Shown here: in pieces, positions 31,237-32,593 of the stretch
How the letters are laid out: each line of letters begins with the position of its first letter
Numbering within the stretch: position 1 is the stretch's first letter
From: Waddliaceae bacterium
GTDB taxonomy: Bacteria; Chlamydiota; Chlamydiia; Chlamydiales; SLFE01
Reading direction: 5' to 3'
NCBI GenBank assembly: GCA_963783885.1
Contig: CAWAPJ010000010.1
Coordinates: 1-64,000 of the forward strand
Length of the DNA: 64,000 nucleotides
The notes under the pieces: generated by a model
The model's input: only the letters and a program-made list of their open reading frames with translations
What the model was told of the DNA's origin: nothing
Database searches by the model: none
Made by a program: the position numbers and the translations under genes

Positions 31237-31322
31237 ATAACCTCCCTTTCAATTCAATTATATCAGATTTTGACTTTTTTATCGATGTTGGCCCATTATA
31301 GGAGCATGAAGCCTGCACTTAA

Positions 31323-31484
31323 CCCGTATTTCTCACACCCAACTGTGAAAGTTGTGCAAGATGTTTGTCAGAGTTTCCAAAAACTCGAGGAGGGACATGG
31401 TTTTAAAACTACAACGACGAAAGCTTTAGGAAAAATCGGCAAACAGATTGTGCAAATTTCACAGTTGGGTGCGAGAAATGAGGG
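31323..31484. mobile_element. MITE family E (CCC...GGG ends, TTAA TSD) inserted in codons 5-6 of the desaturase
   Basis: About 37-bp imperfect TIR CCCGTATTTCTCACACCCAACTGTGAAAGTTGTGCAA / TTGTGCAAATTTCACAGTTGGGTGCGAGAAATGAGGG; TTAA at 31319-31322 and 31485-31488. Confidence 0.88.
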
Positions 31485-32593
31485 TTAAGGATTCTCCGGC
31501 CATTATTTCACCCTATTATGCTAAAAATGTAAAGTTTGCCAAAAGGCAAAATAACGATTTTCTCTCTGTCGTCAGGAAAAGAGTCTTCGAAGAATTTAAA
31601 AGGAGAGGCATCCCTCAGTATGCCAACACTGAAATGATTCTGAAGACGCTTATGATTGCTGCCGCCTATATCGGGTGCTTCATTGCCATCTTTTCCGATT
31701 ATTTCAGTTCTTTGGGGGTAATTTTGTGGTATGCGGCTTTGGGATTTGTCTGCTCTATGAACGGTCTCAATATCGCTCACGACGCCATGCATAGCGCTTA
31801 TTTTAGGTCGCAAAGAATCAATAAATGGGTGGCTTATTTTTTTGACTTCAACAGCACAAGTTCGTTTATCTGGAGAATTTCCCACAACACATATCACCAT
31901 ATATATACGAATATCCCCGGGCTCGACAATGACATCGATAAGGGAAGTATGCTCCGCCTTCAGCCCACTGATCCTTTGCTAAAGTTTCATTATTGGCAAA
32001 ACTGGTATGCGATTCCTTTATATAGCTTGCTGACGTTCAATTGGGCGTGGATTTCCGATATTCACTGGTGCTGCAAGGAGTTTCGAAAGGGCACTGTTTC
32101 GGCAAAGGACGCCGCCATTTTTTCTGCCTTCAAAGCGGCCAATCTTTTGGTTTTTGTTATTTTGCCGATATGTGTTTTGTCTGTTCCCTGGTGGGTGCCG
32201 CTCCTAGGTTATCTGCTTTTGCATATGGTAGCCGGGGTCGTATCGGGAGTCATTTTTCAACTTGGGCATGTTGTGGAAGGTGTCGATTTCATTTCCCCCG
32301 ATCAAGAGGGAAACCTGCCTTATGACTGGGCCTTTCATGAAATGCTCACAACGTCCAATTGCTGCACAAAAAGCCGATGGGTCGCCTTTTGGGTCGGCGG
32401 CTTGAACTATCAAATCGAACACCATTTGTTTCCAAATATCTGCCATGTCCATTATCTTTGGATTTCCGATATCGTCAAACAAACCGCTGAAGAATATAAT
32501 GTTCCCTATAAGGTGATCCCTACCTTTTGGGGCGCAGTCGCCTCGCATTTAAGAACGCTGAAAAAGCTGGGACGAAAGAAACAATGGCCATGA
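31478..32593 (+). CDS. Membrane fatty acid (acyl-CoA) desaturase; present start lies inside MITE E
   Basis: His boxes HDAMH, HNTYHH and QIEHHLF. Confidence 0.9.
   Translation: MRVKDSPAIISPYYAKNVKFAKRQNNDFLSVVRKRVFEEFKRRGIPQYANTEMILKTLMIAAAYIGCFIAIFSDYFSSLGVILWYAALGFVCSMNGLNIAHDAMHSAYFRSQRINKWVAYFFDFNSTSSFIWRISHNTYHHIYTNIPGLDNDIDKGSMLRLQPTDPLLKFHYWQNWYAIPLYSLLTFNWAWISDIHWCCKEFRKGTVSAKDAAIFSAFKAANLLVFVILPICVLSVPWWVPLLGYLLLHMVAGVVSGVIFQLGHVVEGVDFISPDQEGNLPYDWAFHEMLTTSNCCTKSRWVAFWVGGLNYQIEHHLFPNICHVHYLWISDIVKQTAEEYNVPYKVIPTFWGAVASHLRTLKKLGRKKQWP

Follow-up and report, generated by a model that had tools for sequence, protein, structure and literature searches.

The fatty-acid desaturase gene in the window, a stretch of 64,000 nucleotides from a Waddliaceae bacterium (genome G000 below), carries a MITE five codons into its coding sequence. 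The terminus of this element appears to have replaced the start codon of the gene, with translation of the restarted protein coupled to that of a short open reading frame (ORF) that opens at the old start. We estimate the probability of this explanation as a whole at roughly three in four.

The desaturase locus

Two TTAA tetranucleotides, read directly in the sequence, flank 162 bases that begin with CCCGTATTTCTCACACCCAACTGTGAAA and end with TTTCACAGTTGGGTGCGAGAAATGAGGG (Table 1). The terminal 28 nt of the two ends show 3 mismatches as inverted repeats, and the repeat extends into arms of 68 nt that are 78% complementary (22% of positions differ). The predicted RNA fold of the region has an energy of -89.7 kcal/mol (z = -8.35), and 0 of 200 shuffled sequences were as stable. 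The net gain of 166 bp is 1 mod 3 and shifts the reading frame, as the initial annotation of this DNA had proposed, and deletion of the element together with one TTAA in silico restores MKPALKDSPAIISPYY. The same annotation had recognized the ancestral start codon, an ATG that is shared with the element-free genomes discussed below, and had placed it at 31307; the identity of the codon holds and its coordinate is 31306. This ATG is included in the listed ORF 31270..31488, and from it translation would pass through the whole element, for 60 sense codons, to the TAA of the right TTAA, which lies 8 nt after the start of the new ATG. A promoter-like site ends 7 nt upstream of the ancestral ATG, so that the leader of a transcript would be very short or absent.

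The frame of ATG 31478 runs intact to 32593 and matches PF00487 with an E-value of 5.9e-33 (no NCBIfam model matches the desaturase). Its translation has the three His boxes HDAMH, HNTYHH and HHLFP, in line with the original description of an in-frame ATG ahead of an undamaged enzyme. The N-terminus predicted from this ATG is (M)RVKDSPAIISPYYAK. The in-frame TGA that usually stands ahead of the element ATG has become CGA in the desaturase copy, and GTG 31469 and TTG 31448 are therefore possible alternative starts.

Table 1. Positions of the features at the desaturase and nqrC loci, numbered from the first base of the window.
Feature	Position	Strand	Remarks
Promoter-like site TTGACT, 18 nt, CATTAT	31270..31299	+	9/12 consensus matches; consensus match only; sequence kept in G001 and G002
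Ancestral desaturase start codon, now opening the upstream ORF	31306..31308	+	Same ATG and same upstream context in element-free G001 and G002
Upstream ORF, 60 codons plus TAA, from the old start through the whole element	31306..31488	+	MKPALNPYFSHPTVKVV...QLGARNEG (stop); no Pfam match
TTAA target-site duplication, left copy	31319..31322	.	Single TTAA at the same place in G002
162-bp MITE, terminal inverted repeats 31323-31350 and 31457-31484	31323..31484	.	Missing from the orthologous site of G001 and G002
Shine-Dalgarno (SD)-like GGGTG inside the right inverted repeat	31467..31471	+	6 nt before ATG 31478; duplex with the genome's own 16S 3' end -6.1 kcal/mol
Predicted present desaturase CDS, 371 codons plus stop, ATG within the right inverted repeat	31478..32593	+	PF00487; purifying selection
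TTAA duplication, right copy	31485..31488	.	TAA 31486-31488 is the upstream ORF stop; bases also in desaturase codons 3-4 (GTT AAG)
61-bp copy of this MITE with an internal deletion, located between nqrB and nqrC	9980..10040	-	Orthologous G001 copy 161 bp; G002, G003 and G004 without element
nqrC, 302 codons plus stop, with the ATG of the MITE terminus (9986-9984) as predicted start	9078..9986	-	TIGR01938, 212.5 bits against a cut-off of 144
Upstream ORF from the old nqrC start GTG 10060-10058, through the element	9983..10060	-	Ends at a TGA overlapping the new ATG (ATGA); nqrC of the outgroups begins at the corresponding GTG
nqrB, terminated by the TAA (10043-10041) of the left TTAA target copy	10041..11570	-	

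The initial annotation had predicted that related genomes would show an empty site at this position, and two of them do. In the closest genome (G001) the orthologous site without the element reads ATGAAGAATTCTCTTCCTATT (MKNSLPIISPYY), and in G002 it reads ATGAAATCGGTAATTAAGGAC (MKSVIKDSPVIISPYY); G002 keeps an undamaged TTAA at the place of the insertion, and its protein begins MKSVIKDSP. The promoter-like region upstream of the gene is conserved in both. Desaturases of the sister genus begin MIMPVVKDEPTFVSPYY and MSAVEKPSIVSPYY, and none of the orthologues compared starts at MRVKDS. Comparison with these genomes thus shows both the insertion and the ancestral start. The gene is not decaying: its dN/dS is 0.10, and the 7 nonsynonymous and 22 synonymous changes specific to the G000 branch, set against 5 and 25 on the G001 branch, reveal no excess of nonsynonymous change (p = 0.53).

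Classification of the element and search for an autonomous partner

The element is a MITE, i.e. a non-autonomous inverted-repeat transposon, with a 4-bp YTAR target duplication; inverted repeats, target duplication, small size, dispersed copies and empty orthologous sites are all present. It contains no transposase gene, and Pfam gave no match for its sole long frame, of 60 codons. Other places in the genome hold related copies that share these ends, the nearest of them 78-83% identical, and the 15-nt end motif (with at most 2 mismatches) occurs 24 times in the genome compared with 3 times for the reversed control; the element is therefore more than a chance arrangement. Identical 4-bp flanks were found at 12 of the 24 paired elements in four genomes, and 39 of 42 termini in the genomes G037 and G072 adjoin YTAR. 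Young copies favour a duplication of four bases; old copies do not separate three from four.

Members of the IS5 group duplicate a 4-bp YTAR target, a feature that the present element shares. The sole IS5 candidate that we compared, an IS5-family element at 29347-30291 (PF13737, PF01609), was rejected as a partner because its ends differ from those of the MITE; on the complementary strand its right end is GGCTTTGTTGCG..., a sequence that may be IS903-like. CCC...GGG ends and a TTAA target are traits of IS1380 and piggyBac-like elements, but a search for an IS1380-type transposase (NF033539) found nothing in G000, and in G001 and G002 nothing that exceeded the cut-off. The multi-copy IS of G001 was also discarded, its ends (CAGGGAAATTGCATG...) being unrelated. 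No transposase was found adjacent to the end in the inward sequence of 11 solitary ends in G000, or at 16 solitary ends in G001, G037 and G072, where one inward frame, of 442 aa, encodes an epimerase. Neither solitary ends nor multi-copy transposases in these four genomes (incomplete assemblies, with fetched loci only in three) yielded a full-length IS with the same ends.

The nqrC locus

A shortened copy of the same MITE separates nqrB from nqrC on the minus strand of the window, where the initial annotation had already noticed the same outcome. G000 and G001 share this insertion, which G002, G003 and G004 lack. Between the two genomes that share it, nqrC differs at 74 synonymous and 32 nonsynonymous positions (dN/dS 0.094 at dS 0.51), and the ATG supplied by the element is retained in both despite differences at 4 of 12 terminal bases. 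The comparison shows that nqrC has been under long-term purifying selection since the shared insertion, apparently while depending on the ATG of the element. The ORF from the old start is still open to the new ATG after a frame-changing internal deletion of 100 bp. However, the old nqrC start is embedded in the coding end of nqrB, and its conservation therefore carries no independent weight in favour of coupling. The 61-bp copy in G000 is predicted to form little or no hairpin (z = -1.35, AUG P(unpaired) 0.65).

Recurrence of start replacement

Comparison between genomes shows seven independent start-replacement events with a shared geometry. The affected genes are the desaturase, nqrC and a UvrD-type helicase in G000, and nadC, a methyltransferase, an ABC permease and tag in G001; gene identities were confirmed, and most of the seven cases were compared against an empty site. 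In all seven the target is a YTAA read as xYT AAx, located 4-16 nt past the old start. Most of the insertions alter the frame, and the protein is predicted to restart at the element ATG. Where the desaturase copy has its SD-like motif, the other start-replacing copies have AGGTG, GGAGGTG or GGGGAGG; the stronger SDs are those of nadC, the permease and nqrC. Pairing of the genome's own anti-SD sequence with the 20 nt that precede the ATG has a mean duplex energy of -9.4 kcal/mol for the 7 start-replacing termini, compared with -5.2 kcal/mol for 67 other ATG-bearing termini (Mann-Whitney p = 0.0007); this comparison and the sub-group of copies discussed below were defined after the cases had been seen, which makes the p-values post hoc, and copies within the sub-group are related.

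In 6/6 two-ended start-replacing elements no stop interrupts the ORF from the old start on its way across the element, and this ORF closes at a position from -6 to +13 nt relative to the new ATG; 10/34 other element orientations share this property (Fisher p = 0.002, or 0.005 when nqrC is counted once). The truncated methyltransferase copy and the tag copy also have this stop at +8, and the upstream stop falls within -6 to +13 nt of the new start in 8/8 cases. The new AUG is predicted to be paired in nearly all of the folds, with P(unpaired) <= 0.01 in 5/6 two-armed copies. No promoter-like site facing the gene was found within the element.

Copies that do not replace a start codon

Start rescue is confined to one sub-group of copies, whose inverted repeat also bears an SD-like motif. 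The G037 and G072 copies that share the 15-nt end lack a ribosome-binding motif, and among their 43 ATG-bearing termini there is no start replacement; 2 of the 43 open ORFs of more than 60 aa, and both of these ORFs have better downstream starts. In-frame outward ATGs at four loci (C9:6890 of G000, which encodes a DsbD_2 protein; the alcohol-dehydrogenase locus L069 of G001; L109 of G037; L128 of G072) were rejected as start replacements, each gene having a better start downstream. Pattern matches at L058 (G001) and L023 (G002) were judged to be due to chance, with no element present.

We compared the distribution of copies with a model of random YTAR insertion in which survival requires either an intergenic location (4295 sites) or a site where rescue is possible (272-622 sites). 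The model expects 6-13% of copies at gene starts. With approximate denominators, gene-start loci make up about 7/30 in G000 and G001 (p = 0.0016 to 0.076) and about 7/59 when pooled over four genomes (p = 0.06 to 0.63). There is no overall excess at gene starts, and the pooled share is about what random YTAR insertion followed by survival predicts; because the denominators are approximate, we do not claim that gene starts are targeted. The orientation of the element relative to the gene is the same in 5/6 cases, which is not significant (p = 0.11). The enrichment of rescued gene starts anticipated by the initial annotation is thus borne out as a recurrence of in-frame ATG rescue (seven genes, in G000 and G001), and does not extend to a pooled excess at gene starts, with no rescue at all in G037 and G072. 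Its description of the terminus as a portable cassette that makes insertions at gene starts tolerable is supported within the limits of the SD-bearing sub-group; targeting is unsupported.

It is possible, albeit doubtful, that this sub-group is itself adapted to gene starts, preferring start-proximal YTAA sites and owing its SD, ATG, open frame and flanking stops to selection for spread, as has been proposed for the mycobacterial repeats considered below. Seven of the nine SD-bearing sub-group loci are at gene starts, both ends of several copies bear an ATG, and the consensus of element end and target places stops in two of three frames (TGA at -6, target TAR at +8) beside an open ATG frame. 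However, the sub-group was defined from the cases themselves, the pooled gene-start share matches the expected range, and deletion of old neutral copies with retention of start-supplying ones would alone enrich gene starts. We regard as similarly tentative the fuller proposal that the sub-group is a self-contained mobile cassette for translational coupling, evolved to be safe at both gene starts and gene ends. The inverted repeat would provide SD and ATG and the body an open frame, and the duplicated YTAR would close the incoming ORF while also forming codons 3-4 of the restarted gene, with the TGA guarding the ATG frame and the stop of the upstream gene preserved. Such a cassette could split overlapping operon genes, e.g. 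nqrB and nqrC, without breaking either, and might persist preferentially at start codons or even target them.

Proposed mechanism of translational coupling

Insertion of the MITE at a TTAA five codons into the desaturase gene would have cut the coding body off from its start codon. We propose that the gene survived because the terminal inverted repeat, read outwards, could serve as a small ribosome-binding site consisting of an SD-like AGGTG (here GGGTG), a 6-nt spacer, the ATG and 4 bases to the element end. A target YTAA in the frame xYT AAx would place this ATG in frame with the gene, and the restarted protein, M-R-V/A-K..., would lack only its first one to five residues. Transcription would still proceed from the gene's own promoter. 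The old start codon would still be translated as well, opening a short upstream ORF that crosses the element. At the RNA level, base pairing between the two inverted repeats would create a long hairpin in which the new SD and AUG are hidden. Ribosomes that began at the old start would open this hairpin and finish translation only a few nucleotides from the new AUG; in the case of the desaturase, the duplicated target provides the stop (TAA). Initiation or re-initiation would then become possible at the new AUG, which amounts to translational coupling. We infer that translation does start at ATG 31478 and that this start requires the upstream ORF to be translated. A new start sequestered in a predicted structure that the upstream ORF traverses, with this ORF reaching to within 13 nt of the AUG, is consistent with such coupling.

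It seems rather unlikely that the element SD and ATG act as an independent ribosome-binding site and that the upstream ORF is a harmless leftover without a role. The ideal spacing of the SD-like motif in all start-replacing termini agrees with this alternative, and so does the scarcity of hairpin in the 61-bp nqrC copy of G000, the truncated methyltransferase copy and the composite tag insertion, which indicates that the ATG can be kept when there is no hairpin to melt. Against it stand the predicted pairing of the AUG in five of the six two-armed copies, the old-start ORF, which continues unbroken to the new ATG in all cases but in 10/34 of the other orientations, and the retention of this property by nqrC through its internal deletion.

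The desaturase combines the weakest SD of the set (GGGTG) with the most stable hairpin and is therefore the case in which silence is least excluded, but a recent insertion that silenced the gene, its intact frame and in-frame ATG being coincidental (a one-in-three chance for the frame), is improbable: the frameshift relative to the ancestral start, the very stable hairpin over the new AUG, the weak SD and the presence of the gene in 10 of the 41 genomes searched (it is not universal) would all suit silencing, yet the 371-codon frame is intact with all His boxes, the G000 branch has accumulated changes like the uninterrupted G001 branch, the divergence between the arms and from the nearest copies argues against a very recent arrival, and six other genes, including nqrC with its record of selection, have the same arrangement.

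Translational coupling at a MITE terminus would reveal a way for a compact genome to live with transposon insertions in its essential genes: a short inverted repeat that is, or became, a ribosome-binding site would turn a lethal insertion into a swap of one to five N-terminal residues. The cases provide seven natural replicates of apparent start-codon replacement, most of them with an empty site and one, nqrC, maintained across speciation, and they form a ready-made system in which to test RNA-unfolding and re-initiation models of translational coupling. For genome annotation, gene callers will place such starts inconsistently and label the upstream ORFs as hypothetical proteins.

Relation to known systems

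In the freely accessible literature, to which our search was confined, we found no report of MITEs in Chlamydiae (judged by title or abstract) and none of a MITE inverted repeat serving as SD and ATG. The closest precedent is that of the mycobacterial MIRUs, and the present case extends the idea to a true inverted-repeat transposon in an unrelated lineage. MIRUs are described in a 2025 review of translational coupling as apparently mobile repeats that insert at start codons and whose internal ORF is translationally coupled to the gene through a -4 overlap, which is thought to minimise the effect of the insertion (PMC12548453). Going by that description, the likeness lies in the position at a gene start and in an ORF that runs through the repeat and ends by the start of the gene. 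The spacing from stop to start differs, being +8 in five of our cases and +1, -6 or +13 otherwise; only the nqrC copy of G000 has the ATGA of a -4 overlap. The present element also differs from MIRUs as described there in its long terminal inverted repeats, 4-bp YTAR duplication and predicted hairpin over the new start, and it lands a few codons inside the gene and so would replace the N-terminus.

Classical translational coupling, either by RNA unfolding or by termination and re-initiation, involves an upstream ORF that ends a few nucleotides from a downstream start sequestered by structure (PMC12548453, PMC6728339). In contrast to the pairs described there, the present pair would be made by a transposon, its upstream partner being a junk ORF composed of the old start and the element. 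[quoted passage not shown]

Rickettsia palindromic elements are described as MITE-like repeats tolerated in protein-coding genes of obligate intracellular bacteria (PMC10969869, PMC3184786). As described there, they are read through in frame as an extra peptide, whereas the present insertion mostly shifts the frame and the protein would restart at the element ATG. The pneumococcal BOX element supplies the stop codon for 36 genes, and its boxC can give a start codon to some ORFs (PMC3049150). The ORFs started by BOX are presented there as hypothetical and without a good SD, whereas here known conserved genes would be restarted and an SD-like motif is present. The present element also sits exactly at the stop codons of several genes, a likeness to BOX.

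Insertion at the start of the desaturase gene

The 162 bases between the two TTAA copies begin with CCCGTATTTCTCACACCCAACTGTGAAA and end with TTTCACAGTTGGGTGCGAGAAATGAGGG, their inverted-repeat arms reach 68 nt with 78% complementarity, and the RNA of this region is predicted to fold at -89.7 kcal/mol (z = -8.35). A 60-codon frame from the ATG at 31306 spans the entire element and terminates at the TAA at 31486-31488, and a 371-codon frame from the ATG at 31478 matches fatty-acid desaturases (PF00487, E 5.9e-33) and contains the three His boxes. The initial annotation had described the element, both frames and the intact His boxes, and the one correction to it is that the old ATG lies at 31306-31308 instead of 31307.

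The desaturase is present in 10 of the 41 related genomes searched. Our assembly (G000; 2.16 Mb in 46 contigs, of which the window is contig 10) was compared with G001 and G002, all other genomes of its genus, which have the same upstream sequence, including a promoter-like TTGACT-18-CATTAT, and lack the element at this site. The gene starts ATGAAGAATTCTCTTCCT (MKNSLPIISPYY) in G001 and ATGAAATCGGTAATTAAGGAC (MKSVIKDSPVIISPYY) in G002, where a single intact TTAA, the empty site that the initial annotation had proposed looking for, lies exactly at the position of TTAA-element-TTAA in the window. Desaturases of the sister genus start MIMPVVKDEPTFVSPYY and MSAVEKPSIVSPYY; the window sequence becomes MKPALKDSPAIISPYY once the element is taken out together with one TTAA, and the present protein is predicted to begin MRVKDSPAIISPYY. 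Judged by this comparison, 31306 is the ancestral start. In the interval 31270-31306, the end of the promoter-like -10 hexamer lies 7 nt 5' of the old ATG, a layout kept in G001 and G002, and the desaturase mRNA may have little or no leader.

Coordinates of target copies and elements, including elements located at stop codons
Feature	Location	Remark
TTAA	31319-31322	left target copy, desaturase
TTAA	31485-31488	right target copy, desaturase
nqrC element	9980-10040	minus strand; nqrC identity by TIGR01938
UvrD-type helicase element	G000 contig 19	94 bp between two CTAA
Element at stop codon	10041-10043	nqrB stop
Element at stop codon	G000 C8:125230	
Element at stop codon	G000 C43:28984	same site as G001 L059
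Element at stop codon	G001 L051, L068, L056	

Start replacements in two genomes

In the outward direction the consensus element end reads ...AGGTGTGAGAAATGCGGG and then passes into the target; its ATG occupies positions -7 to -5 relative to the tip. This ATG occurs in 11 of the 20 ends of paired elements in G000, and four ends open into long ORFs. One, at a DsbD_2 protein, was rejected because a better start lies 15 codons downstream; the other three (desaturase, nqrC and helicase) are real start replacements. At C9:6787-6890 a 104-bp copy and its 4-bp duplication add 108 bp (36 codons), through which a small upstream ORF reads in frame before an ATGA overlap with a DsbD_2-family gene.

In G002 and two outgroup genomes (G003, G004), nqrC starts with a GTG overlapping the end of nqrB. 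The window and G001 carry an element at a TTAA 16 nt past this GTG, nqrC now starts at the element's ATG, the outcome claimed by the initial annotation, and the left TTAA copy still supplies the nqrB stop codon. The element is 161 bp in G001; the window copy has lost 100 internal bases. Helicase genes free of the element start MTVLTNLNPEQQ (G001), MTALIPNLNPEQ (G002) and MNQLLQSLNPEQ (G003), and in G000 ATGACTGTGTTGA stands before the first CTAA and the protein restarts as MRAKLNPEQQ. The G001 helicase orthologue (C4:1599282-1599873, L080) gave a match split into two overlapping parts, suggestive of a frameshift or an error of assembly about 45 codons into the gene.

Four more cases were found in G001. 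The nadC product, METNPEIERL at the empty site in G000, is now MQANPEIERL; a SAM-dependent methyltransferase has changed from MNQPSLESLV to MRIKPSLESLV, where all that is left of the element is the 45 bp facing the gene; an ABC-transporter permease has changed from MVKAKSS to MRVKAKSS, its old start and target reading ATGG then TTAA, with the stop of the upstream gene in the left TTAA; and tag, MINDKPRCFGG in G000, reads MRVDIEENDKPRCFGG behind a composite insertion. By sequence comparison these are seven independent start replacements (three in G000, four in G001), and all seven lie at a YTAA in the frame xYT AAx, 4-16 nt past the old start. A further insertion, common to both genomes (G000 C43:28984-29109, 126 bp; G001 L059:1501-1663, 163 bp), has a 499-aa gene on one side and, on the other, a DEAD/ResIII helicase gene whose longest frame starts in both genomes at an ATG in the element core (MQNRQTN...), a candidate for an eighth element-supplied start, at a different position in the element.

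Function of the new start and proposed translational coupling

The best evidence that the new start works comes from nqrC, where the insertion, judged from its presence in both genomes, is older than the G000/G001 split. Since the insertion nqrC has evolved with dN/dS 0.094 at dS 0.51 (G000 versus G001), and 4 of 12 terminal element bases differ between the two genomes, yet the ATG is kept. The desaturase has dN/dS 0.10 against G001, with 7/22 nonsynonymous/synonymous changes on the G000 branch versus 5/25 on that of the uninterrupted G001 gene (p = 0.53).

Every start-replacing end has a Shine-Dalgarno (SD)-like motif 6 nt 5' of the ATG (AGGTG, AAGGAGGTG, GGGGAGG or GGGAAGGTG; GGGTG in the desaturase copy); the 16S rRNA of G000 ends ...GGATCACCTCCTTT. 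When the 20 nt preceding the ATG are paired with this end, the predicted energy averages -9.4 kcal/mol for the seven start-replacing ends versus -5.2 for 67 other ATG-bearing ends in four genomes (p = 0.0007), a post hoc comparison set up once the cases were known.

Coupling is suggested by three features. In all start-replacing cases the ORF from the old start stays open through the element and stops -6 to +13 nt from the new ATG (+8 in the truncated methyltransferase copy and the tag copy). This property is found in 6/6 two-ended start-replacing elements versus 10/34 other element orientations (p = 0.002, or 0.005 with nqrC counted once). The geometry is inherent in element end plus target: the consensus end has a TGA two codons upstream in the frame of the ATG, and the next frame meets a stop in the TAR of the duplicated target, 8 nt past the first base of the ATG. 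At nqrC the open old-start ORF ending near the new ATG survived the frame-changing 100-bp deletion (stop at -6 in G001, ATGA overlap in G000). Because the new AUG is predicted to be paired in five of six two-armed copies (P(unpaired) <= 0.01), and no promoter-like site facing the gene was found inside the element, ribosomes from the old AUG would melt the hairpin and stop at the new start. The ATG itself can be retained independently of the hairpin, as hairpin-less copies keep it.

The insertion is therefore confirmed as an observation, and the comparisons support an element-supplied start. Of the portable re-initiation cassette put forward in the initial annotation, start replacement stands by comparison; the coupling of the new start to the old-start ORF is what we infer from reading frames and predicted folds.

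Test for a bias towards gene starts

If YTAR sites are hit at random and copies survive solely in intergenic DNA or at rescuable sites, a simple model predicts 6-13% of copies at gene starts. About 7 of 30 loci in G000 and G001 lie there, two to four times expectation, but the four genomes pooled (with G037 and G072, from two other families of the order) show no excess. The SD-like motif is missing from the copies in G037 and G072, where 2 of 43 ATG-bearing ends open into ORFs >60 aa; both were rejected as start replacements, having better starts downstream. In the SD-bearing sub-group, defined from the cases themselves, 7/9 loci are at gene starts. Old neutral copies have likely been lost and copies holding a start codon retained.

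Element family and distribution

The element end has the consensus CCCGCATTTCTCACA, and ten two-ended elements of 61-164 bp were recognised in G000.

Matches to the end motif (<=2 mismatches) and to the reversed motif as control
Genome	Motif	Control
G000 (this genome)	24	3
G001	32	1
G002	4	3
G003	5	4
G004	2	7
G005	6	0

When 201 genomes of the order were scanned at <=1 mismatch, 23 matches fell in G037 and 21 in G072, members of two unrelated families, and small numbers in a few others. The 15-nt end is abundant and nearly invariant in G037 and G072 (loci L102-L130), but most of the 201 have few copies or none, a patchiness which suggests that the element, or its unseen autonomous partner, has spread horizontally. 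Because 39 of 42 ends in G037 and G072 adjoin YTAR and 12 of 24 paired elements in the four genomes have identical 4-bp flanks, the element is a MITE with a 4-bp YTAR duplication. No full-length partner was found beside solitary ends or in the multi-copy transposases of G000, G001, G037 and G072. An IS5-family element (29347-30291; 314-aa transposase, PF13737 and PF01609; second copy on contig 1), which lies 1 kb upstream of the desaturase, was rejected, as its ends are unrelated to those of the MITE. A solitary end-like CCTGGATTTCTCACA at 51578-51592, with CTAG just before it, is possibly left over from a related element.

Relation to known repeats

A 2025 review (PMC12548453) describes mycobacterial MIRUs as apparently inserting at start codons, with the repeat ORF coupled at -4 and the insertion effect minimised; the idea is already in print for MIRUs. 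Other articles (PMC3184786, PMC10969869, PMC3049150) report neisserial REP2 repeats that fuse promoter, RBS and ATG to genes, RPEs in frame within Rickettsia genes (PMC10969869, PMC3184786), whose insertion style resembles the C9 copy, and BOX elements as a source of stop and some start codons (PMC3049150). What is new is that a true inverted-repeat transposon replaces starts. Unlike these precedents, the MITE holds SD and ATG inside a repeat that the transposase must recognise, its duplicated target doubles as stop codon and codons, and its hairpin would tie restart to the old start. In the freely readable main text of articles, we found no report of MITE start replacement of this sort or of MITEs in chlamydiae. 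Seven matched filled and empty sites are on hand. The case bears on research into mobile elements and translation initiation, and on how compact genomes are annotated.

Elements at gene ends

Elements are often located exactly at a stop codon; the YTAR target contributes its TAA or TAG as that stop, which the left duplication copy keeps. The upstream gene therefore remains intact even where an element splits an overlapping gene pair, as in nqrB/nqrC and in the G001 permease and its upstream gene. A truncated copy at G000 C36:27322-27382 gives a minus-strand gene its last six codons and stop, replacing the C-terminus.
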